From the sequence record PP129558: a stretch of 64,000 bases of DNA. One strand, written 5' to 3'. Under the pieces are notes generated by a model. That model had not been told where the DNA came from. It searched no databases and saw only the letters and a program-made list of their open reading frames with translations. Below are positions 3,688-58,267 of the stretch, piece by piece; within the stretch, counting starts at the first letter, position 1; each line of letters starts with the position of its first letter. The position numbers and the translations under genes are program-made. The DNA is from Escherichia phage vB_EcoM_01.

Positions 3688-3921
3688 ATGAAAGGTAACA
3701 AGATGAAAGTTAATCAAGTGCCGAGCGCATACACTTTGTGGCTTGCACGAGCGTTACACCAGACGATCAAAAACCCTAAGAAGCCAATGAAGAGCGGGAA
3801 GAAGTTTATGTCTAAGGGCAAAACAACCTTTGGCTTCACTCGTATGTCTGTTAAGATGAAAAGACTGGGGTACAAGCCAAACTACGCTCGTTACCCTTCT
3901 GAATACAACTGGTTTGACTAA
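3688..3921 (+). CDS. Hypothetical Lys-rich basic protein
   Basis: ATG at 3688 preceded by GAGGAGG; table ORF 3622 trimmed to RBS-supported start. Confidence 0.4.
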   Translation: MKGNKMKVNQVPSAYTLWLARALHQTIKNPKKPMKSGKKFMSKGKTTFGFTRMSVKMKRLGYKPNYARYPSEYNWFD

Positions 3922-4019
3922 AAGGAGGAAGATTATGGCTACTTTTCAACAACTGAAAGATGTTTCACGTTTAGTAAGAAAAATCCGAGAAGCAGACGCT
4001 GCTGCTGTCTCTTATACAN

Positions 4020-4609
4020 NNNNNNNNNNNNNNNNNNNNNNNNNNNNNNNNNNNNNNNNNNNNNNNNNNNNNNNNNNNNNNNNNNNNNNNNNNNNNNNNN
4101 NNNNNNNNNNNNNNNNNNNNNNNNNNNNNNNNNNNNNNNNNNNNNNNNNNNNNNNNNNNNNNNNNNNNNNNNNNNNNNNNNNNNNNNNNNNNNNNNNNNN
4201 NNNNNNNNNNNNNNNNNNNNNNNNNNNNNNNNNNNNNNNNNNNNNNNNNNNNNNNNNNNNNNNNNNNNNNNNNNNNNNNNNNNNNNNNNNNNNNNNNNNN
4301 NNNNNNNNNNNNNNNNNNNNNNNNNNNNNNNNNNNNNNNNNNNNNNNNNNNNNNNNNNNNNNNNNNNNNNNNNNNNNNNNNNNNNNNNNNNNNNNNNNNN
4401 NNNNNNNNNNNNNNNNNNNNNNNNNNNNNNNNNNNNNNNNNNNNNNNNNNNNNNNNNNNNNNNNNNNNNNNNNNNNNNNNNNNNNNNNNNNNNNNNNNNN
4501 NNNNNNNNNNNNNNNNNNNNNNNNNNNNNNNNNNNNNNNNNNNNNNNNNNNNNNNNNNNNNNNNNNNNNNNNNNNNNNNNNNNNNNNNNNNNNNNNNNNN
4601 NNNNNNNNN
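4020..4609. other. Assembly gap (N run) with duplicated flanks and adapter remnants
   Basis: 3856-4006 repeats at 4630-4780; CTGTCTCTTATACA at 4007-4018 and ACACCACGTCTG at 4610-4621. Confidence 0.8.
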
Positions 4610-4708
4610 ACACCACGTCTGTTGTNNAGATGAAAAGACTGGGGTACAAGCCAAACTACGCTCGTTACCCTTCTGAATACAACTGGTTTGACTAAAAGGA
4701 GGAAGATT

Positions 4709-4885
4709 ATGGCTACTTTTCAACAACTGAAAGATGTTTCACGTTTAGTAAGAAAAATCCGAGAAGCAGACGCTGCTGTGCGGAATGCACTAACGCCAGC
4801 AGAGCGTGAAGATCTTGAAGAGGAGGTGAAAACAGCCGAGAATGCTTTTGCTGCGTATCTTTCAACACTGTATACAGGAGGTTAA
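4709..4885 (+). CDS. Hypothetical protein (5' end also present in duplicated flank at 3935)
   Basis: AAGGAGGAAG RBS then ATG; 59 aa. Confidence 0.4.
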   Translation: MATFQQLKDVSRLVRKIREADAAVRNALTPAEREDLEEEVKTAENAFAAYLSTLYTGG

Positions 4886-6026: not shown

Positions 6027-6121
6027 GGAGTCGGGACACCCGACGATTGGAGCTAAAAATTTTGCGTACAACCCTTTCCGCCCAACAGGGGCGCGTCGGG
6101 TAAATAAAGAGGAGAGTTTAT

Positions 6122-6520
6122 ATGAAAAAGATCATTGTAGGTTTATTGCTACTCGTTGCATCACTTGGAACAGCAAATGCGTCTCAAGTTTATGAGTGTG
6201 TGTCAGATGTGGTTGTTAAAAATCTGAAAGGTGAAGTGATTTCTGGTCCTAAGAAAATGGCTTCTGTTGTCATTAATAAAGATAACTCCTTTATCCTTAA
6301 AAATTCAGGTGGTGCTTTGATGAGTGGCATTCTGCAATACACAGGAGAAAAAAGTAAAGATGGTAGTGCTATGTACGGTTCACAACAATTTATTGGCACT
6401 ACTGAAGTAGTAATGATGCGCACAGAGTATCGAGACACTTTGGCTTGGTTTGCATTTCTAAAAAATGATAAAACAATAACGAATGTTCTTACTCTAGAAG
6501 CTGATTGTACGCAACGATAA
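6122..6520 (+). CDS. Hypothetical secreted protein with N-terminal signal peptide
   Basis: MKKIIVGLLLLVASLGTANA signal-like N-terminus; GAGGAG RBS. Confidence 0.5.
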   Translation: MKKIIVGLLLLVASLGTANASQVYECVSDVVVKNLKGEVISGPKKMASVVINKDNSFILKNSGGALMSGILQYTGEKSKDGSAMYGSQQFIGTTEVVMMRTEYRDTLAWFAFLKNDKTITNVLTLEADCTQR

Positions 6521-9715: not shown

Positions 9716-10039
9716 ATGCAAGCAGTTGTTAACGAAGCTATTATGAACTTATCCTTCTTGTTGGCTGGTTTAGGAGGTGTTCTCATAGGTTTGGCTCTTA
9801 TCTGGTGTATTCGTCGATTAATCGGGTACCGACAAAAAGGTGTTTCATGTTTTGTATCTTACAATTTTACAACTGCTTACAGCAATGAGGTTGGATCTGG
9901 CAATGCTCAAGCATTTTTACCAACATATCCTCCTACGGTGGAAGATATTCGAAACTTGGAAGTAGAACTTATGGGACTAAGTGATAACTATACATCTCTA
10001 GTTATTCAAAATATTTTTCGACTAAAACAGGAGGCGTGA
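9716..10039 (+). CDS. Hypothetical membrane protein
   Basis: Hydrophobic segment LSFLLAGLGGVLIGLALIWCI; AAGGAG RBS. Confidence 0.4.
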   Translation: MQAVVNEAIMNLSFLLAGLGGVLIGLALIWCIRRLIGYRQKGVSCFVSYNFTTAYSNEVGSGNAQAFLPTYPPTVEDIRNLEVELMGLSDNYTSLVIQNIFRLKQEA

Positions 10040-10252
10040 ATGAAGGTACATTACCCTCATCCCTTTGATCCTAAAAACAAAGCCGTAATTCTTCGTCAGT
10101 GGCAACGGGTTTGTCGTACTAAATGTCCAATCAATAGCCCACACAATGTAGACAAGGACTATCTTGGGACATTTGTTGAATACACTTACATAGACAAAAA
10201 CAAGCGTAAACAACATGTCGAGGAATACTGCTTAAGAGTAGAATGGCTGTAA
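10040..10252 (+). CDS. Hypothetical protein
   Basis: ORF with AGGAGG RBS. Confidence 0.4.
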   Translation: MKVHYPHPFDPKNKAVILRQWQRVCRTKCPINSPHNVDKDYLGTFVEYTYIDKNKRKQHVEEYCLRVEWL

Positions 10253-10264
10253 ATAATAAATACC

Positions 10265-10293
10265 TTGACAAGTGTTTATTCGTTTTGTAAAGT
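10265..10293 (+). promoter_or_regulatory. Sigma70-like promoter (TTGACA-N17-TAAAGT)
   Basis: Motif upstream of recombinase gene. Confidence 0.45.
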
Positions 10294-10322
10294 GAGAATA
10301 CAGCAATGGTTTAGGAGTGGTT

Positions 10323-10994
10323 ATGAAAAAGTTTGTTGTTTACAGTCGTCTTTCTAAACAGAAAAAAGGTGAGGCACAATATGGTATGGAGAGCCAAGAG
10401 AATGATATCCGTTACTTCTTAGACTCTGTGCCTGATGCGGAAGTTATTGGTCAATTTTCTGAATACTATTCGGGTAAGGGCGATTGGAAGCAACGTAAGG
10501 AACTGGTTAAAGCGGTTGAAATGTGTAAAGCTACCGGAGCAACTTTATTGGTAGCTAAAGTTGACCGCTTGGGTCGTAACAACGCCTCCGTAGCAACTCT
10601 TCTAGAAATGATTGATGTTAAGATAGCCATCATGCCAGACGCAGATAAAATGGTTATACAGCTTCTGTCTGTTCTGGCTGAACAAGAAGTTAGAGGTATT
10701 GCTGATCGTATTAAAAAGGGGCTTGCTGTAGCAAAAAGCAAAGGTGTTTTATTAGGCAGTGCTAATCCTAAAACTGCCGCTGCACGTAGAAAAGGAAAAA
10801 TGGAATACAACTCTGTTAAAGCAGACGCTTTTGCAGAGACATTCCGTGAACGCTTGGAGATCCTTAGAGATTTAAATACACCTTACAAAACTATTGCTGA
10901 AAAATTCAATAGTAAGAAAATAGCAACAGCACGTGGTGGTAAATGGGATGCTAAAACTGTTTCTCGTTTGTGTGCCAGACTGAACATTAAATAG
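10323..10994 (+). CDS. Small serine recombinase (resolvase/invertase family) with C-terminal DNA-binding region
   Basis: N-terminal YSRLSKQ (candidate catalytic Ser) and VDRLGRN motifs typical of resolvase catalytic domain. Confidence 0.6.
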   Translation: MKKFVVYSRLSKQKKGEAQYGMESQENDIRYFLDSVPDAEVIGQFSEYYSGKGDWKQRKELVKAVEMCKATGATLLVAKVDRLGRNNASVATLLEMIDVKIAIMPDADKMVIQLLSVLAEQEVRGIADRIKKGLAVAKSKGVLLGSANPKTAAARRKGKMEYNSVKADAFAETFRERLEILRDLNTPYKTIAEKFNSKKIATARGGKWDAKTVSRLCARLNIK

Positions 10995-16597: not shown

Positions 16598-16648
16598 CTA
16601 TCAAAGCTGCATCTTCAATAGGTGCAGCCTTTTAAAAGGAGATATGGC

Positions 16649-16822
16649 ATGACTAAACGCACTGATTTTAAATGTATGCATTGTGGGAAATCTTTTGGGG
16701 ATCATCAAGCTCGCACATTCAACTGTCCACGTAAAGGTCGCGGAAATTTTAAAGGTTTTAATCCCGCACATGTTTATTCTCCAGATTACGATAAGCCAGA
16801 AGAAGAAAAATTTGTTATTTAA
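16649..16822 (+). CDS. Hypothetical small zinc-finger-like protein
   Basis: CMHCG ... CPRKG; ATG after AAAGGAG. Confidence 0.4.
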   Translation: MTKRTDFKCMHCGKSFGDHQARTFNCPRKGRGNFKGFNPAHVYSPDYDKPEEEKFVI

Positions 16823-16834
16823 TAAGGAGGTCAT

Positions 16835-17116
16835 ATGGAACTCGTTCAAGAATTGTATAATGCTTTAGGAGCAAAAGGAAAAGATTGGCCCGAACATGCG
16901 CTTATTGCTATAAGAGACTCCGATGGTGAGATTAAGTTTTCAAGTGTAAGTAAAGAGCACATCGTAGAAACAAAACTGGGTATTTACATGCGTGGAACTT
17001 ATTGCTTATTCAACACCAGAATGGTAGAAGCTCCTGTTATTGAAGATGGAACAAAAGATTGCCCCACAATCGTAACAAAAGCTGAATATGAGAAGTTTTT
17101 CTACGCTAAGGCTTGA
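16835..17116 (+). CDS. Hypothetical protein
   Basis: ORF with AAGGAGG RBS. Confidence 0.45.
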   Translation: MELVQELYNALGAKGKDWPEHALIAIRDSDGEIKFSSVSKEHIVETKLGIYMRGTYCLFNTRMVEAPVIEDGTKDCPTIVTKAEYEKFFYAKA

Positions 17117-17160
17117 CACAGAAACAATACTATAGGATAGTGATCCTATCGTAGCAATAG

Positions 17161-17183
17161 AACCCGCTTCGGCGGGTTTTTTC
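17161..17183 (+). terminator. Rho-independent terminator (CCCGC-TTCG-GCGGG + T6)
   Basis: GC stem, UUCG loop, T run. Confidence 0.65.
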
Positions 17184-17207
17184 ATATCTGTAGCAATAGG
17201 AGGTCGT

Positions 17208-17438
17208 GTGTTAAATAAAATCGAAGAAGGTTGTATGGCATTTTTGGTAGATAACCCGTTTCCCTTTATGGTTAAGGTCCATGTAGGAGAGTATTTAGGT
17301 TATGACGAATGGGATTGTAGTATCAATAGTGAAATGCACCACTACCAACCAACAATACTTAAGACGGATCAAATGGCGCGTATTACAGTAGAGGATGAAT
17401 TGATCATTGAGTTATACGAGAGAGCACTACACAAGTAA
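17208..17438 (+). CDS. Hypothetical protein
   Basis: ORF after AGGAGG. Confidence 0.4.
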   Translation: MLNKIEEGCMAFLVDNPFPFMVKVHVGEYLGYDEWDCSINSEMHHYQPTILKTDQMARITVEDELIIELYERALHK

Positions 17439-26367: not shown

Positions 26368-26412
26368 AATCCCTCCTTAAAATACTCCCTCCGAAAAGGG
26401 AGTATAAGTATA

Positions 26413-34904: not shown

Positions 34905-35989
34905 TCGAAGTCAAGCTCCTCATCATCAGAGAGATCTTTGTTAGCTGAATTCAATTTGTAGTTAGTTAACTGAATCTCTTGGGCTGCTGACTGAATCAAA
35001 TCAGGATTCAACCATTTTTCCATCCAAGCTAAAGGACTATGTTTAGGTGCTTTAAACTTGGCTTTCATTTTCAATCGACGATAAATAGGGGCAGCATTGA
35101 AATAAACCCACTGTTTAGACAATTCGGCGTTAAGACCTACAATAAAACGCCCTTCACTAAACAGGTAGTCACACCACTGTTCCTCTTGTTCAACAACAGT
35201 GTCGAGAATCAAAGTCAACTCTTCGATATTGTCTTCGTAAATTTTACGCCAAATTGGGTCATGCATCAATGCATCAATTACAGCATAATCCATCTTAACA
35301 TGCAAGATTTCATCTAGCATAATTTTCTGGATCAGTTTACAAGCCCCAACAAACAGTTGTTGTTCTGCCATAGCAAAAGTAGCAGAGAAGGAAGATATAA
35401 ACTGAATACCTTCTAATCCAATCAGGGCTACCATCCCTTTAAGAATCAGCAGTCGAAGTTCATCGTTAGCTTCAATCAATCCTAGAGCATACTTATGACC
35501 AGCTTCTTCCAACTGACCCATGATATCAGCAATGATACCCATACGATTGAAAATTTTATCATTAATCATAATCTGATTGATGACTTCGATTGGATCTGGA
35601 GTACATTGACGGATTATTTCAGAATACGTTAACGCATGGAGAACTTCCATTTCACTCTGCTTCATCATCATAGCACAGGCTTCATTGTTACTCAAGAATG
35701 GAGAGAACAAAGTGATGATTGATTTTGCAAGAGAATCATTTTCCCATTGGAACGATAAGTTTTTAATCATAACATCATAGTTGTTTTTAGAACAAGCTAC
35801 GAAATCTTTACGTGTCTGATCCAGATTGACTTCATTCTCATCCCAATCTTGTGCTTTTTGAAGTTTGTAGAGTTTGTGCATCTCTGGATAAGTTACGTTA
35901 ACAGAATCAAAGATCCCTAATTGTTCCCCTAAAAATACTGGATATTTTCCTGTTTTGTAAACTTCATTGTGTAAATTAATTGCTGCCAT
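34901..35989 (-). CDS. nrdB: Ribonucleotide reductase small (beta) subunit
   Basis: Size and position next to nrdA; assigned mainly by context and family resemblance. Confidence 0.75.
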   Translation of the reverse strand: MAAINLHNEVYKTGKYPVFLGEQLGIFDSVNVTYPEMHKLYKLQKAQDWDENEVNLDQTRKDFVACSKNNYDVMIKNLSFQWENDSLAKSIITLFSPFLSNNEACAMMMKQSEMEVLHALTYSEIIRQCTPDPIEVINQIMINDKIFNRMGIIADIMGQLEEAGHKYALGLIEANDELRLLILKGMVALIGLEGIQFISSFSATFAMAEQQLFVGACKLIQKIMLDEILHVKMDYAVIDALMHDPIWRKIYEDNIEELTLILDTVVEQEEQWCDYLFSEGRFIVGLNAELSKQWVYFNAAPIYRRLKMKAKFKAPKHSPLAWMEKWLNPDLIQSAAQEIQLTNYKLNSANKDLSDDEELDFE

Positions 35990-36011
35990 TTAAAATTCTC
36001 CTCAATAAAAA

Positions 36012-36025
36012 GGGGCCGAAGCCCC
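36012..36025 (-). promoter_or_regulatory. Intercistronic GGGGCTTCGGCCCC hairpin between nrdA and nrdB, copy 3 of 3
   Basis: Hairpin + T-run then GAGGAG RBS and nrdB ATG; duplicated at 37013-37026 by assembly. Confidence 0.5.
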
Positions 36026-36123
36026 TAGTTTCATCACATCTTGCAAGCTTCACAACCACCATCAGAATCTTCTTGTGCTAAAGAGTCTGCTGATTTTGTT
36101 CTACTATTAAGGTAATACAATGA

Positions 36124-36975
36124 NNNNNNNNNNNNNNNNNNNNNNNNNNNNNNNNNNNNNNNNNNNNNNNNNNNNNNNNNNNNNNNNNNNNNNNNNNNNN
36201 NNNNNNNNNNNNNNNNNNNNNNNNNNNNNNNNNNNNNNNNNNNNNNNNNNNNNNNNNNNNNNNNNNNNNNNNNNNNNNNNNNNNNNNNNNNNNNNNNNNN
36301 NNNNNNNNNNNNNNNNNNNNNNNNNNNNNNNNNNNNNNNNNNNNNNNNNNNNNNNNNNNNNNNNNNNNNNNNNNNNNNNNNNNNNNNNNNNNNNNNNNNN
36401 NNNNNNNNNNNNNNNNNNNNNNNNNNNNNNNNNNNNNNNNNNNNNNNNNNNNNNNNNNNNNNNNNNNNNNNNNNNNNNNNNNNNNNNNNNNNNNNNNNNN
36501 NNNNNNNNNNNNNNNNNNNNNNNNNNNNNNNNNNNNNNNNNNNNNNNNNNNNNNNNNNNNNNNNNNNNNNNNNNNNNNNNNNNNNNNNNNNNNNNNNNNN
36601 NNNNNNNNNNNNNNNNNNNNNNNNNNNNNNNNNNNNNNNNNNNNNNNNNNNNNNNNNNNNNNNNNNNNNNNNNNNNNNNNNNNNNNNNNNNNNNNNNNNN
36701 NNNNNNNNNNNNNNNNNNNNNNNNNNNNNNNNNNNNNNNNNNNNNNNNNNNNNNNNNNNNNNNNNNNNNNNNNNNNNNNNNNNNNNNNNNNNNNNNNNNN
36801 NNNNNNNNNNNNNNNNNNNNNNNNNNNNNNNNNNNNNNNNNNNNNNNNNNNNNNNNNNNNNNNNNNNNNNNNNNNNNNNNNNNNNNNNNNNNNNNNNNNN
36901 NNNNNNNNNNNNNNNNNNNNNNNNNNNNNNNNNNNNNNNNNNNNNNNNNNNNNNNNNNNNNNNNNNNNNNNNNNN
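36124..36975. other. Assembly gap (N run) flanked by 148-bp exact duplication
   Basis: 35976-36123 equals 36976-37123. Confidence 0.8.
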
Positions 36976-37034
36976 ATTAATTGCTGCCATTTAAAATTCT
37001 CCTCAATAAAAAGGGGCCGAAGCCCCTAGTTTCA

Positions 37035-39275
37035 TCACATCTTGCAAGCTTCACAACCACCATCAGAATCTTCTTGTGCTAAAGAGTCTGCTGATTTTGT
37101 TCTACTATTAAGGTAATACAATGATTTGCCACCCAGTCTAGCAAAATTCAAAATAAACTGCATCTCAGCTTTCACGGATAAACGTCCACCTACCAATTTA
37201 GAATAATCTAGCCAAGAATCACAAGAAATTCCTTGGTCAGTAAACTTGGTAAAGATACCATACATTTCTGCAAGGTCTTTAGCCGGAGTATCCCAGGCAG
37301 ATTGGTAGAACATTTTCAGTTTTTCGTAGTCTGGAACAATAAATAATACACTACCTTTCTGACTTTGTTTATACATAATGGTATCACGAACAGGATACAG
37401 AGAGTTAGTAGTATTGCTTACCAAACTGCTGGACTCATTAGGTGCAATAGCAGCCAATACACTGTTACGGATACCACCTTGTTCAATGATTTCAGCACGT
37501 AAGCCTTCCCAGTCCATTTTAAGATCAAAATTACCGATACTATCTACTGTTTTAGCATAAGTGTCAATTGGTAGCCAACCTTGAGGCCATTTGGTCTTAT
37601 CGATCCATTCTGCATTACCTTTTTCCTTAGCCAGACGCAGAGAGGCTTTTGCCAACCAGAAGTAATGACGTTCTGCAAGTTCATGCATTAATTTTTTAGC
37701 ATAAGCATCTGAATAATTTACAAAATTACTTGCCAAGTAATGCGCTAAGTTTGTAATGCCTACACCAATAGATCTACGTGCTTTAGCAGTTATTTCGTTA
37801 TGTTTAAATGGATAATCCATTGTTTCAATAACGTTGTCAATTGTCAATACAGTGTAGTATGCAACATCTTCATATTCTTCAGGTAATACACGACCAGCAA
37901 CAATAGAAGATAAGAAGCATAAAGCCAATTCTTGATCTTCTGTATTCTCACCAGTAAAGAGATCCGGCATACTGTGGAAAGCTTTAGTTGGTAAGAAGAT
38001 CTCTTGACACAGGTTTGATTGATACACCGTATCCAGGAAAGGTGTATGGTTGTTAACGTTGTCAGCAAAGAACATGTAAATACGTCCTGTTTCTGCACGT
38101 TGAACAATAATCTCTGTCAGAAGATCACGAGCCTTAACAAATTTTTTCTTAATGCGACGACGGCTTACTTTGTCATAAACTGCATCAAACTCTTCTTCAC
38201 TTTTATACAAAGCTTCATAAAGTTCTGGAGCATCATCACAACTAACTAACATCCAATCTTCGTTTTTTGCTGCTCGACGCAAGAATGAACGGTTAACAAC
38301 AATAGAATAATCCAGTTTGTCTACTCGTTTATCTATAGGTGTTGTTGGATTCTTCAGTCGAATCAGATCGTCGAAGTCTGGTTCAAGTATGGTAAAGGTA
38401 ACTGTAGCACTACCTCCACGGCTTGCTTGCTTCGAAGCTCCAACACTATCTTCCATCCATTTCAGATATGGAAGAAGACCACCATGAATAATACGATTAT
38501 TCTTAACACCTTGACCTGTGGCACGAGTTTGAAGATTAACACCAATACCTGCGTTATTTAACGTATACTCATGAGCTAAGTAATTAGCAATGGCTAAAGA
38601 CTCTGCTGTATCGTCTGCGCGGAATAAACAACAAGACGCACTTCCTTTGATTGGAGTTCGTAGAGTTGTCAGATACGGCGATGGCAGATTAATCTTAAGA
38701 TCGCTAACATAAGTATAAAGTTTTTTAATATCTTCTATACGGCGTTCTTTTGGTTGGATCTCCATAACCTTCATTGCGATACCAATGAAAAGAAACTGTG
38801 GAGACTCATGCACAACATCGTTTACTGCATCTCGAATAAGATATTTATCTACCATCTGACGTAAAACAGAATAACCATAAGTTAGATTTTTATTATGCTT
38901 TACAATCTTACCGATTTCTTTGATCTCTTCATCAGTATAATCCATTTTAGCCCAATGTCCACGTTCTACCATATCATGATAAAAGGTATTCAGTGAAGGG
39001 ATACTGTGGTATCCCCCATGAGCCTGTTTGTAAATCATACCCAGAAGAAGTCTTCCTGCCATATCACTGTAAGCTTGTGTTTTCTTGTCAATACACGCTG
39101 CAATCATTGCTTTATGCAGATCACGTGTAGACACACCGTCATAACACCGCTTCACAGCTTCTAATTCAATTTCAGACCAGTTTAGTTTACCTGCTGCAAA
39201 TTCAGACCACTTGCGAAGTTTTTCTGGATTAAACTCCTCTGTCTTACCGTTAGATTTAGTTACAAAACGAATCAA
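37035..39275 (-). CDS. nrdA: Ribonucleotide reductase large (alpha) subunit, class I
   Basis: 746 aa; multiple conserved Cys including C-terminal pair; context with nrdB and glutaredoxin. Confidence 0.8.
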   Translation of the reverse strand: MIRFVTKSNGKTEEFNPEKLRKWSEFAAGKLNWSEIELEAVKRCYDGVSTRDLHKAMIAACIDKKTQAYSDMAGRLLLGMIYKQAHGGYHSIPSLNTFYHDMVERGHWAKMDYTDEEIKEIGKIVKHNKNLTYGYSVLRQMVDKYLIRDAVNDVVHESPQFLFIGIAMKVMEIQPKERRIEDIKKLYTYVSDLKINLPSPYLTTLRTPIKGSASCCLFRADDTAESLAIANYLAHEYTLNNAGIGVNLQTRATGQGVKNNRIIHGGLLPYLKWMEDSVGASKQASRGGSATVTFTILEPDFDDLIRLKNPTTPIDKRVDKLDYSIVVNRSFLRRAAKNEDWMLVSCDDAPELYEALYKSEEEFDAVYDKVSRRRIKKKFVKARDLLTEIIVQRAETGRIYMFFADNVNNHTPFLDTVYQSNLCQEIFLPTKAFHSMPDLFTGENTEDQELALCFLSSIVAGRVLPEEYEDVAYYTVLTIDNVIETMDYPFKHNEITAKARRSIGVGITNLAHYLASNFVNYSDAYAKKLMHELAERHYFWLAKASLRLAKEKGNAEWIDKTKWPQGWLPIDTYAKTVDSIGNFDLKMDWEGLRAEIIEQGGIRNSVLAAIAPNESSSLVSNTTNSLYPVRDTIMYKQSQKGSVLFIVPDYEKLKMFYQSAWDTPAKDLAEMYGIFTKFTDQGISCDSWLDYSKLVGGRLSVKAEMQFILNFARLGGKSLYYLNSRTKSADSLAQEDSDGGCEACKM

Positions 39276-47199: not shown

Positions 47200-47382
47200 T
47201 TATTTAAAATAGCTTTCTAGAAAGTTGCTAATATTTACTACAGACTCACCCATGTAAATCCCTGCGAAACCGAAAACAAGCATACGTGGAATATTGAAAT
47301 ACCATTTATCTGCCGGAAAAGATGCCAGAATTACGATAGCAATTGCTATCAACATCATAAGAATTGTTGCTAAAATTATCAT
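47200..47382 (-). CDS. Small hydrophobic membrane protein (lies in duplicated segment)
   Basis: MIILATILMMLIAIAIVILA; GGAGG RBS. Confidence 0.35.
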   Translation of the reverse strand: MIILATILMMLIAIAIVILASFPADKWYFNIPRMLVFGFAGIYMGESVVNISNFLESYFK

Positions 47383-47622
47383 AAAAATGCCTCCAGGTAT
47401 TTTGCACAATGATAAGCTAAGAACATTTTTCCTCCTTATTCTGCTGGTTCCCAAGTGCCTGGGATCATTTCTCGAATACGATAGCAATTGCTATCAACAT
47501 CATAAGAATTGTTGCTAAAATTATCATAAAAATGCCTCCAGGTATTTTGCACAATGATAAGCTAAGAACATTTTTCCTCCTTATTCTGCTGGTTCCCAAG
47601 TGCCTGGGATCATTTCTCGAAT
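47339..47622. repeat. Exact tandem duplication of ~142 bp (probable assembly artifact)
   Basis: 47339-47480 identical to 47481-47622, includes 3' end of ligase gene. Confidence 0.7.
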
Positions 47623-51338: not shown

Positions 51339-51694
51339 TAGTATAATCCCTCGCTAAATAGGTCACGATCATGACCATTACGTTCGTAGTCAATCTGGTC
51401 TGCGTGTTTTGCAATAATGTATGCATCTTCACGACTCCACCAATTGTAGTATTGATCAATAAAACCTTGATTGTTTGGAAGACAATGCACTTTATCAAGC
51501 ACACCTGCTTCTTTCAATACATTCAATTGTGCTGATAATACAGGATTTGCATGTCGAACACAAGGAATAATTAACTCTTCACCATTATTCAAAATATATT
51601 TATTCGCAGCACAGACGATAACACGTTGCGCATAATGACCCTCACCAATCCAGGTAAGAGGTTGGTAACAAATGTTCTGATCAATACTACTCAT
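51338..51694 (-). CDS. Hypothetical protein
   Basis: ORF. Confidence 0.4.
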   Translation of the reverse strand: MSSIDQNICYQPLTWIGEGHYAQRVIVCAANKYILNNGEELIIPCVRHANPVLSAQLNVLKEAGVLDKVHCLPNNQGFIDQYYNWWSREDAYIIAKHADQIDYERNGHDRDLFSEGLY

Positions 51695-51912
51695 TAAGTT
51701 TCTCCTTAATAGTGAACACGAATCATTTTAATACCATAACGCAGCATGGATTCTTTTGCAAGCATATAACACGTTGCGCATAATGACCCTCACCAATCCA
51801 GGTAAGAGGTTGGTAACAAATGTTCTGATCAATACTACTCATTAAGTTTCTCCTTAATAGTGAACACGAATCATTTTAATACCATAACGCAGCATGGATT
51901 CTTTTGCAAGCA
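51619..51912. repeat. Exact tandem duplication of ~147 bp (probable assembly artifact)
   Basis: 51619-51765 identical to 51766-51912. Confidence 0.7.
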
Positions 51913-52210
51913 TGAATTTATCCCCAGCGGCGGGGTTAGAAGTATGCACGAAAATGGTAGGTGAACCAAAGCAAGGTTTACCAAACGCCAGAAGTTCTTC
52001 CAGGTACAGGAAAACATCATACCCATCTTGGTCTGACTCCATACCCAAATCGTTGTCAAAATGCCACTCGTCTACAAAACGATAACCCTTCTGCACCTCA
52101 TTCATGTAACGAGAGGCAAGAAGTTCCTGTGAGGTTTTAAACCAGATTGCATCTGGACAACCATAATCTTTTGGATCACGTAAATCATCAAGCCAAATAA
52201 TAGTACCCAT
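51854..52210 (-). CDS. Hypothetical protein with N-terminal IIWLDDxRDP motif
   Basis: ORF. Confidence 0.4.
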   Translation of the reverse strand: MGTIIWLDDLRDPKDYGCPDAIWFKTSQELLASRYMNEVQKGYRFVDEWHFDNDLGMESDQDGYDVFLYLEELLAFGKPCFGSPTIFVHTSNPAAGDKFMLAKESMLRYGIKMIRVHY

Positions 52211-53073: not shown

Positions 53074-53351
53074 TTTGCATTCCTCTTGTTGTTGATAACA
53101 TCCATAGCAGTATATGGTTTATTAGTGCCATGATACTCCAGAATCATTGGAGAGCCTTCTTGCACTACTTCAAAGATACCATAAACAGAACTTTCAGCAA
53201 ATACCATTTGCTTCGTGCCTTCATCGTTTACAACGAGAGAAAACTTCTTGCCTGTCCCGTTGAGGATCTCGTATTTCTTGCCAGCAGTGAATAATCCAGA
53301 GTACCACTCATTATCTGTTGCTTTTACACACTTCAGGAAAGTCTTGATCAT
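53070..53351 (-). CDS. Hypothetical protein
   Basis: ORF. Confidence 0.4.
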   Translation of the reverse strand: MIKTFLKCVKATDNEWYSGLFTAGKKYEILNGTGKKFSLVVNDEGTKQMVFAESSVYGIFEVVQEGSPMILEYHGTNKPYTAMDVINNKRNAK

Positions 53352-53463
53352 TTCTTTTTGCTCCTCTTTTTAGATTTCTCATACAAACCTAACACAGCCG
53401 CTTCTTTTGCACAAGTAGGAACTGAAGTCATTCCTCTTCTTTTTGCTTCTGGCAGTTGCAAAG

Positions 53464-53844
53464 TCCATATTCNGTCTCTTATNNNNNNNNNNNNNNNNNN
53501 NNNNNNNNNNNNNNNNNNNNNNNNNNNNNNNNNNNNNNNNNNNNNNNNNNNNNNNNNNNNNNNNNNNNNNNNNNNNNNNNNNNNNNNNNNNNNNNNNNNN
53601 NNNNNNNNNNNNNNNNNNNNNNNNNNNNNNNNNNNNNNNNNNNNNNNNNNNNNNNNNNNNNNNNNNNNNNNNNNNNNNNNNNNNNNNNNNNNNNNNNNNN
53701 NNNNNNNNNNNNNNNNNNNNNNNNNNNNNNNNNNNNNNNNNNNNNNNNNNNNNNNNNNNNNNNNNNNNNNNNNNNNNNNNNNNNNNNNNNNNNNNNNNNN
53801 NNNNNNNNNNNNNNNNNNNNNNNNNNNNNNNNNNNNNNNNNNNN
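53464..53844. other. Assembly gap (N run) with duplicated flanks
   Basis: 53322-53463 repeats at 53860-54002; AGAGACAG adapter remnant at 53845-53852. Confidence 0.8.
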
Positions 53845-53879
53845 AGAGACAGCTTTTACACACTTCAGGAAAGTCTTGA

Positions 53880-54233
53880 TCATTTCTTTTTGCTCCTCTT
53901 TTTAGATTTCTCATACAAACCTAACACAGCCGCTTCTTTTGCACAAGTAGGAACTGAAGTCATTCCTCTTCTTTTTGCTTCTGGCAGTTGCAAAGTCCAT
54001 ATTCCCCACCAATAGATTTGGTCTGCCGTGAGTGGTTCAGCCATTGGATCTGCCTCCTGCTCCTCAAGACGTTGCAACGCTTCTTCAATCTTCTCGATTG
54101 GTGTGTCAAAGACGAATGCCTCCGTATCAAACTTATCTTTCTTAGGAACTGATTTGGCTACTTTGAGAACCTCGTTTTTCGGTTTCTTAGTAACGTTCTT
54201 TGGCTTTGATAACTTCTTCGGTGTTTTCGCCAC
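53880..54233 (-). CDS. Hypothetical Lys-rich protein
   Basis: ORF. Confidence 0.4.
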   Translation of the reverse strand: MAKTPKKLSKPKNVTKKPKNEVLKVAKSVPKKDKFDTEAFVFDTPIEKIEEALQRLEEQEADPMAEPLTADQIYWWGIWTLQLPEAKRRGMTSVPTCAKEAAVLGLYEKSKKRSKKK

Positions 54234-58024: not shown

Positions 58025-58100
58025 TGGTTTGTAGTGTAGTCCGGTAGCACACGACACTTTGACTGTCGTAGGTTTGGTTCAAATCCAGACAGACCAGCCA
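58025..58100 (+). tRNA. tRNA-Gln (anticodon TTG)
   Basis: Acceptor TGGTTTG/CAGACCA, anticodon arm CGACA-CTTTGAC-TGTCG. Confidence 0.65.
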
Positions 58101-58267
58101 TATAACGGAATTTAGCTCAGTTTGGTAGAGCGTACGCTTTGGGAGCGTAGGGTCGCAGGTTCGAATCCTGCAATNCNGACAGACCAGCCATATAACGGAA
58201 TTTAGCTCAGTTTGGTAGAGCGTACGCTTTGGGAGCGTAGGGTCGCAGGTTCGAATCCTGCAATTCC
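58088..58267. repeat. Exact ~90-bp tandem duplication spanning tRNA-Gln 3' end and tRNA-Pro, N bases at junction (probable assembly artifact)
   Basis: 58088-58177 equals 58178-58267; Ns at 58175 and 58177. Confidence 0.7.

Follow-up and report, generated by a model that had tools for sequence, protein, structure and literature searches.

The stretch of DNA analysed here (the window) comprises 64,000 nucleotides (nt) of Escherichia phage vB_EcoM_01 (sequence record PP129558), and the present study deals with a gene for a small serine recombinase which, together with a predicted promoter of its own, occupies positions 10265-10994, in a group of small genes located about 10 kb inside the left end of the linear genome. 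All 70 records matching the 4-kb surroundings of the gene (90-99% identity) belong to phAPEC8-like phages (genus Phapecoctavirus, subfamily Stephanstirmvirinae), which are lytic Escherichia coli myoviruses of about 150 kb, and the closest match to this 4-kb stretch is OZ035728.1 (99.2%). The longest open reading frame (ORF) at the locus, 10317..10994 on the plus strand, starts with GTG and encodes 225 amino acids; from the ATG at 10323, which is the start annotated in the phAPEC8 record (16627-17298), the protein has 223, close to the ~224 residues given in an initial annotation of the DNA. The following features are found at the locus:

10255..10280 (no strand assigned): 26-bp imperfect dyad AATAAATAC-N8-GTGTTTATT, overlapping the -35 box, 8/9 complementary
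10265..10293 (+): predicted sigma70-type promoter, -35 TTGACA at 10265-10270, 17-nt spacer, -10 TAAAGT at 10288-10293
10313..10317 (+): ribosome-binding site AGGAG, 5 nt before the ATG
10323..10994 (+): coding sequence of the serine recombinase, 223 amino acids plus TAG stop (from ORF, profile, alignment and structure model)
10323..10757 (+): catalytic (resolvase) domain with long E-helix, residues 1-145 (from Pfam, invariant columns, AlphaFold2 (AF2) and Foldseek)
10758..10991 (+): predicted C-terminal DNA-binding domain, residues 146-223, a helix-turn-helix (HTH) of the large serine recombinase (LSR) type, IA..(F/L)N..(K/G)I.T.RGG.W....V.R

Judged from profiles, alignment and a structure model, the gene is intact and predicted to encode a catalytically competent short serine recombinase. 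The initial annotation had proposed a profile comparison with the resolvase family as a check, and Pfam Resolvase PF00239 indeed matches residues 5-142 with an E value of 5.2e-18 and 66 bits (cut-off 23.3), as it does in 40/40 members of the family. The motif YSRLSKQ, in which a presumptive catalytic serine had been noted, is located at residues 7-13 with S11 encoded at 10353-10355, and aligns with Y6/R8/S10 of gamma-delta resolvase; likewise, VDRLGRN at residues 80-86, with D81, R82 and R85 encoded at 10563-10577, aligns with D67/R68/R71 of the same enzyme. The window protein has the full catalytic set (Y7, R9, S11, D81, R82, R85, E120, E122 and R129). In an alignment of 40 family members that are 31-81% identical to the window protein, Y7, R9, S11, Q25, R58, D81, R82 and R85 are invariant and E120, E122 and R129 nearly so, and the core catalytic set is also invariant among 11 sequences after the addition of Vibrio phage ICP1, Shewanella phage 1/40 and two plasmid homologues. 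A PDB search with the window protein returned Tn3 and gamma-delta resolvase, and PHROG_125, named 'DNA invertase', was matched with an E value of 2.6e-32. Modeling from the alignment by AF2 (predicted local distance difference test score, pLDDT, 88.9) gave a mixed alpha/beta catalytic fold with a helix at residues 109-139, for which Foldseek identified Bxb1 as the top match along with Sin, gamma-delta and TP901-1 (E 1e-6 to 1e-5). Two outcomes had been named beforehand as speaking against a serine recombinase, namely assignment to another fold and loss of the catalytic serine; neither profile nor fold searches pointed to another fold, and the serine is retained throughout the alignment. Since the catalytic domain is N-terminal, the protein does not have the IS607-type order of an N-terminal MerR-like HTH followed by a C-terminal catalytic domain. 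PADLOC gave no match for the recombinase, and the NCBIfam matches (YneB, XisF, Mpi, CcrB) were all far below threshold. In GenBank the same protein is labelled as hypothetical protein, resolvase, invertase or DNA invertase, serine recombinase, or recombinase family protein; its identity as a serine recombinase is therefore already in the public records, and the enzyme superfamily is well known. At least 10 GenBank records name the protein 'methionine ABC transporter ATP-binding protein', a propagated mis-annotation.

Among the new findings is the nature of the C-terminal 78 residues, which sequence comparison predicts to be of the LSR type and not a classical resolvase HTH; more specifically, the putative DNA-binding module would correspond to the first HTH of the recombinase domain of the large enzymes. 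The PF07508 'Recombinase' profile matches the window protein at residues 187-216 below the cut-off (E 0.003), and this match covers only positions 19-48 of the 102-position profile; when the 40 family members were scanned one by one, PF07508 was found in 23 of them and HTH_7 in none. A profile of the whole family run against the PDB aligned with small recombinases only up to about residue 150-170, whereas the alignments with Bxb1 and SPbeta SprA extended through residues 202-216. Using a profile of the C-terminal domain, the sole natural protein recovered was SprA (residues 206-244, E 1.7e-4), the remaining matches being designed helical repeats. The 'C-terminal basic region' of the initial annotation is thus better called an LSR-type HTH on the grounds of the PF07508 and SprA matches, while the absence of an integrase-type large C-terminal domain that it had also stated is borne out, since in the AF2 model the protein ends after a 78-residue helical domain. 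Beyond this HTH, the window protein has neither the remainder of the recombinase domain nor a zinc ribbon or coiled coil. We define a clade of short serine recombinases of ~210-260 amino acids, with PF00239 and a C-terminal 'IA..LN..G..T.RGG.W' HTH and collinear over their full length; this short LSR-HTH clade comprises 93 protein clusters, and the window protein has all of these features.

The two domains have apparently had different histories in related phages. Compared to the window protein, that of phage phiWec181 is 95% identical over residues 1-145 and 37% identical over residues 146-223, the latter value being as low as between genera, and the protein of Citrobacter phage Tr1 is 84% identical in the catalytic and 36% in the DNA-binding domain. 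In their DNA, the window and phiWec181 are homologous from 10255 to 10756 (81%), with the homology ending exactly at the domain border, and the genes flanking the recombinase are 37-48% identical or unrelated in the two phages. By these comparisons the catalytic module is by far the most conserved item in the local genome, whereas the DNA-binding module diverges like its surroundings. The differing DNA-binding domains imply that target specificities differ between lineages.

Within the phAPEC8-like phages, in contrast to this exchange between lineages, no variation at all was observed in the protein. At least 60 GenBank phage records contain it without a single difference (100% identity), the DNA identity of the gene being 97.3-100%; in an assembly collection, 884 blocks are indexed for the exact protein, and the hosts on which its phages were isolated include E. 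coli, Shigella, Klebsiella and E. fergusonii. Variation was counted in an alignment of 12 copies (the window, phAPEC8 and ten independent contigs), for the recombinase gene and its neighbours:

9716-10036, neighbour gene: 20 variable nt sites, 6 variable residues
10040-10249, neighbour gene: 10 variable nt sites, 4 variable residues
10323-10994, recombinase: 31 variable nt sites in 10 DNA alleles, 0 variable residues
11003-11410, neighbour gene: 32 variable nt sites, 12 variable residues
11768-12037, neighbour gene: 16 variable nt sites, 5 variable residues
12045-12488, neighbour gene (partial): 14 variable nt sites, 5 variable residues

Third codon positions account for 29/31 variable sites of the recombinase gene. 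This pattern shows that purifying selection on the recombinase is extreme, in a phage subfamily that is strictly lytic. The initial annotation had also considered a remnant of a mobile element; in the sense of decay this does not hold, because the 31 nucleotide changes, 29 of them at third positions, are synonymous and have left every residue unchanged. As far as can be judged from sequence data, what is unusual about this gene is how tightly it is constrained in a lytic phage, together with the combination of a frozen core with a swapped reader of DNA. One apparently broken copy was noted in phage Schickermooser (MK373788.1, 10290-10560, equivalent to window 10355-10560), in which about ten deletions of 1-7 bp fall into the first 260 nt while the remainder and the flanks are clean; we considered this copy as a sign of dispensability and rejected it, as deletions clustered in this way probably reflect a problem of sequence quality.

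The gene is further predicted to be a self-contained transcription unit with a sigma70-type promoter. The TTGACA-N17-TAAAGT arrangement reported in the initial annotation is present and matches the consensus at 10/12 positions, with an equivalent in 11/12 lineages. A single match of this kind is not above chance, as a scan of 10 kb yielded 30 promoter-like sites compared to 27.8 expected from shuffles, a density that corresponds to ~0.1 sites per 60-nt gap. The predicted promoter is credible not because of this match but because it is kept: in all but one of the 12 divergent lineages, the start codon is preceded at a distance of 25-75 nt by a -35/-10 pair whose boxes are 16-18 nt apart, and most of these lineages have a perfect TTGACA even though the surrounding DNA is unalignable. 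The lineages compared were the window, three metagenomic relatives, phiWec181, Citrobacter phage Tr1, two Justusliebigvirus phages, Klebsiella phage FBKp34, Shewanella phage 1/40, Vibrio phage 277E43-1 and ICP1. In the window, the upstream gap of 70 bp holds the promoter and one weak 26-bp dyad, and the stop codon of the gene is 8 nt from the next gene. It might be speculated that the dyad at 10255-10280 is an autoregulatory operator or binding site. Different dyads overlap the promoter in most lineages, with no motif common to them, and some of these may be RNA structures that pair with the ribosome-binding site. In ICP1, a spacer sequence is complementary to the ribosome-binding site (CCCTCTG...CAGAGGA), and the same applies to a promoter-spacer sequence in Vibrio phage 277E43-1 (ATCCCCTGA...TCAGGGGAT). 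In these two phages, the ribosome-binding site could be masked in read-through transcripts but would stay accessible in those that start at the gene's own promoter, similar to the T4-type control of translation by the transcript start.

The position of the gene differs between phage genera. In Justusliebigvirus (alia, FKP3) it is part of a conserved block with the order HslV-like peptidase, methyltransferase, two small genes, recombinase, small gene, 'HisRS-like', phosphatase and DprA-like, and in Shewanella phage 1/40 the recombinase is likewise located between HslV-like and DprA-like genes. In phAPEC8 and the window, the HslV...DprA block is present without the recombinase, and the corresponding gap has the following feature:

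26382..26405 (-): 'empty' position with terminator-like hairpin ATACTCCCTTTTCGGAGGGAGTAT, in the HslV...DprA gap where Justusliebigvirus holds the recombinase

The recombinase of the window and phAPEC8 lies ~15 kb from this block and on the opposite strand relative to it. Neither flanking repeats nor target duplications were found when filled and empty junctions were compared. The recombinases of the two genera are 57% identical and neighbouring orthologues 59-85%, and relocation of a vertically inherited gene would be the simplest reading of the differing positions. A third genomic context occurs in FBKp34, where the gene lies behind a terminator. In ICP1, the gene is present in two 2017 isolates from the Democratic Republic of the Congo (DRC), within a block of genes without legacy 'GP' numbers, which suggests that this block is a variable region. 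Among the phAPEC8-like phages, the immediate gene context is the same in 10/10 independent assemblies. The small downstream ORF was considered as a partner or directionality factor and dismissed, being homologous only within Stephanstirmvirinae and staying at the old position in phAPEC8.

The DNA on which the enzyme acts was sought throughout the phage genome. For genome-wide searches a complete phAPEC8 genome was put together from three retrieved pieces. The initial annotation had raised DNA inversion for host-range switching and, as a check, a search for inverted-repeat crossover sites. Within the 64-kb window, inverted repeats proved to be terminators and look-alikes of ribosome-binding sites alone; a self-BLAST of the complete phAPEC8 genome gave no inverted pair besides terminators, and in a count of exact dyads across phAPEC8 (6-8-mers, 0-24 nt spacers) the only recurrent ones were terminators and GCGGCA-N4-TGCCGC. 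The latter is present in seven copies, all in direct orientation, in the far early region of phAPEC8. The whole window is collinear with phAPEC8 throughout, with no minus-strand segment, and phAPEC8 is collinear with one genome of the sister genus Justusliebigvirus. An invertase would therefore have nothing to invert, as there is no inverted site pair and the genomes are collinear; as the tail-fibre genes are in addition ~60 kb away, the proposal of inversion for host-range switching is unlikely to hold. If the enzyme acts on phage DNA, it would therefore do so at a site present once per genome.

Two candidates for such a site were examined and are weak, namely the dyad over the -35 box and a cluster of dyads near the right genome end. 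A res site beside the gene is not supported by the 70-bp gap and a single weak dyad that is not preserved in phiWec181. At the right end of phAPEC8 (right-end sequence 6039-6200, outside the window), three dyads lie within ~145 bp, 230-370 bp before the terminal repeat; among them are the strongest palindrome of the genome (GCAATAATTGCAAGCGTAATTACGCTTACACTTATTGC) and the one ranking third. The cluster also holds AT(C/T)ATTAGC four times and is kept with compensatory changes in phiWec181 and Justusliebigvirus. As a demonstrated target it was rejected, being conserved between phages whose recombinases differ in their DNA-binding domains; moreover, Justusliebigvirus has a 26-bp palindromic insertion in the center of one dyad, which would be intolerable in a crossover site, and the two genera share many other 'intergenic' blocks that are just as well conserved. 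The cluster is probably a replication-origin or packaging element. As to the recurrent dyad, elements of the sequence GTAGGGCGGCAATGGTGCCGCTCAC (stem GCGGCA/TGCCGC) occur in seven to ten direct copies before small early genes at 143.7-147.6 kb and 0.5-3.2 kb of phAPEC8; they are annotated as PHIRE 'promoters' in the phAPEC8 record and look like conserved hairpins of 5' leaders.

Outside phages, full-length homologues of 35-40% identity are found in 110 plasmid records. Many of these plasmids are only 5.7-7 kb in size (Synechococcus, Marinovum, Klebsiella), the recombinase being one of about five annotated genes; in the two plasmids that were examined, the ~650 bp ahead of the recombinase are non-coding, and in the Klebsiella plasmid this stretch includes a 34-bp dyad located 35-65 bp before the start codon. 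In bacterial genomes, at least 524 homologues with 32-41% identity were identified. Clustering of the genes beside them revealed no conserved partner gene, and the commonest neighbours, as judged by eye, were integrases, methyltransferases, ParA/ParB-like proteins and small terminase, so that the bacterial homologues appear to reside in a mobile-element context. The stand-alone recombinases of plasmids and other mobile genetic elements (Paracoccus, Synechococcus, Klebsiella, Hymenobacter, Rhodobacterales) resemble the phage protein in architecture, as they are collinear with it, 33-41% identical over 95-99% of the length, and have the same two domains. They are presumed to be multimer-resolution enzymes, a function derived from their context; the plasmid genes examined differ from the phage gene in having ~650 bp of non-coding DNA with dyads upstream, compared to 70 bp in the phage.

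Similarity to the well-studied systems is confined to parts of the protein. With the Tn3, gamma-delta and Sin resolvases, which are the best single-sequence PDB matches, it shares the N-terminal catalytic domain, the E-helix, the catalytic residues and the size class (~185-225 residues). However, the alignment with these enzymes stops at about residue 150-170 and their HTH_7 is absent from all 40 family members, there is no res with accessory subsites beside the phage gene, and the carrier is a lytic phage and not a transposon or plasmid. Gin of Mu, Cin of P1 and Hin are likewise phage- or prophage-borne small serine recombinases, Gin being the top PDB profile match, but here neither an invertible segment nor inverted crossover sites were found, the gene is located away from the tail fibres, and the DNA-binding domain is a different one. 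The C-terminal motif IA..LN..GI.T.RGG.W....V, in turn, matches the first HTH of the recombinase domain of Bxb1, SPbeta SprA, phiC31 and TP901-1. Unlike these large serine recombinases of ~450-700 residues, the 223-residue phage protein contains no more of the recombinase domain than this first HTH, and neither zinc ribbon nor coiled coil; in the large enzymes, the zinc-ribbon domain and the coiled coil control the choice of att sites and directionality. Furthermore, the carrier is a non-temperate phage for which no att site is known. P1 Cre/loxP is an example of a phage site-specific recombinase with a single site in each genome, its substrate being phage DNA in terminally redundant or multimeric form. 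This is a functional analogy only, since Cre is a tyrosine recombinase of a temperate plasmid-prophage and no lox-like site was found here.

Our preferred, albeit tentative, reading is that of an early-expressed resolvase-type recombinase which acts at one site on replicated or co-infecting phage DNA and possibly represses its own promoter. The gene would be transcribed by host RNA polymerase immediately after infection; a dimer or tetramer would cut with Ser11 and exchange strands at a specific site recognised by the C-terminal domain, and recombination would occur between copies of a single-copy site, which would meet only where phage DNA is replicated, multimeric or co-infecting. As a result, early products of replication and recombination might be monomerised or untangled, or genomes might undergo site-specific exchange, and the protein may in addition bind the dyad over its own promoter and repress itself. 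A resolvase-like reaction appears most likely because there is no related site pair in either orientation and because the nearest non-phage relatives stand alone on plasmids of 5.7-30 kb; of the three roles considered in the initial annotation, inversion, concatemer resolution or a mobile-element remnant, resolution-type recombination is the most plausible. Several points weigh against this reading. No target site was found in the phage genome, and the 70-bp upstream gap is too short for a classical three-subsite res; the dyad at the promoter is weak, with AT-rich arms of 9 bp, and is not preserved in phiWec181. A phage with short terminal repeats packages its DNA from concatemers, and reducing these to monomers seems counter-productive, which makes the benefit of a resolvase doubtful. 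The split between 37% and 95% identity suggests a fast-changing target and would fit a target in a host or competitor at least as well as a cis-element of the phage. In the literature searched, no experiment on the recombinase protein was found; a 'resolvase keeping concatemers as single genomes' has been put forward as a guess (PMC10282059).

The main rival explanation is that the enzyme is instead directed at the host or a competitor; it might act on the chromosome, a prophage, a defence island or a rival phage and excise, invert or break DNA there in the course of take-over or anti-defence. This would agree with the predicted host-type promoter among early genes, with the failure to find a cognate site pair in the phage genome, with the occurrence of the ICP1 gene in two 2017 DRC isolates in an apparently variable region, and with the replacement of the DNA-binding domain between close lineages next to a catalytic domain that is 95% identical, a pattern reminiscent of an arms race. 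However, a protein that is invariant across phages of E. coli, Shigella, Klebsiella and E. fergusonii is not what an arms race would be expected to produce, and as PADLOC gave no match and no candidate host site was found, we regard this explanation as rather unlikely. Distinctly unlikely is the more specific proposal that the lineage-swapped DNA-binding module on a frozen core serves as a weapon against foreign DNA, be it host defence, a mobile element or a competing phage, within the first minutes of infection; if true, it would represent a new class of phage counter-defence or take-over by site-specific recombination. The gene might also be a selfish, 'moron'-like cassette of promoter and gene that has no role in the phage life cycle and persists by moving or by being hard to lose. 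Its own predicted promoter in every context, the differences in position and orientation between Phapecoctavirus, Justusliebigvirus with Shewanella phage 1/40, and FBKp34, and the sporadic occurrence in Vibrio phages would be expected of such an element. That the position is fixed within the genus in all assemblies, that filled and empty sites differ by neither flanking repeats nor a target duplication, and that the identity of 57% to the sister genus, at the low end beside 59-85%, is compatible with vertical descent plus relocation leave this possibility with a low probability, all the more as a complete lack of amino-acid change argues for a function selected in the phage. A role mainly as DNA-binding regulator, either autorepressor or regulator of early genes, with recombination chemistry being secondary, would account for the dyads found over the promoter in most lineages, which change along with the DNA-binding domains; it is nevertheless very unlikely, given that catalytic residues needless for a pure regulator are invariant down to ~30% identity, and that the dyads have no shared motif and in some cases look like RNA hairpins pairing with the ribosome-binding site. 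Finally, a DNA invertase that flips a phage segment for host range or gene expression, like Gin, Cin and Hin, is suggested by the name of the best PHROG, 'DNA invertase', by Gin as best PDB profile match and by the many tail fibres and tailspikes of phages of this subfamily. With no inverted crossover pair in the window or complete phAPEC8, no inverted segment between window and phAPEC8 or between phAPEC8 and the sister genus, ~60 kb between the gene and the tail-fibre cluster and a C-terminal domain other than the HTH_7 of invertases, we consider it highly unlikely.

The substrate of the enzyme decides between harmless processing of phage DNA and an ability to rearrange bacterial DNA. This is of practical relevance, as phages of the genera Phapecoctavirus and Justusliebigvirus have repeatedly been proposed for therapy and biocontrol as recombinase-free, yet every isolate examined has an intact recombinase under strong selection. 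Two papers on these phages state that recombinases are absent (PMC5374246, PMC10269720), the former, a genome paper, in explicit terms. In addition, a serine recombinase of 223 residues with an exchangeable DNA-binding module could be of interest to tool-builders.

Some further observations concern the neighbouring gene and the sequence record. The 70-residue gene just upstream of the recombinase (window 10040-10252) is assigned to Pfam DUF7202 by the precomputed annotation in 10/10 independent contigs; a DUF7202 gene is also located three genes upstream of the recombinase in one more distant relative. The window is a raw, untrimmed draft assembly which starts near the physical end of the genome. 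Positions 1-231 consist of ~155 C residues followed by Illumina/Nextera adapter (...AATGATACGGCGACCACCGAGATCTACAC...TCGTCGGCAGCGTCAGATGTG) and then by the direct terminal repeat (DTR), which is entered where base 163 of this repeat lies in Schickermooser. The DTR of Schickermooser was measured here as 329 bp and is given as 328 bp by Korf et al. (PMC6563267). Runs of N with ~150-nt duplicated flanks are present at 3849-4778, 35975-37124 and 53320-54004, and tandem duplications of 90-148 nt at 47332-47621, 51618-51913 and 58082-58261. Each of the duplicated sequences is present once in phAPEC8, where both copies map to overlapping coordinates, and these read-length duplications thus appear to be unmerged contig overlaps or scaffolding artefacts rather than biology. 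The region 10265-10994 is free of all of these assembly artefacts.

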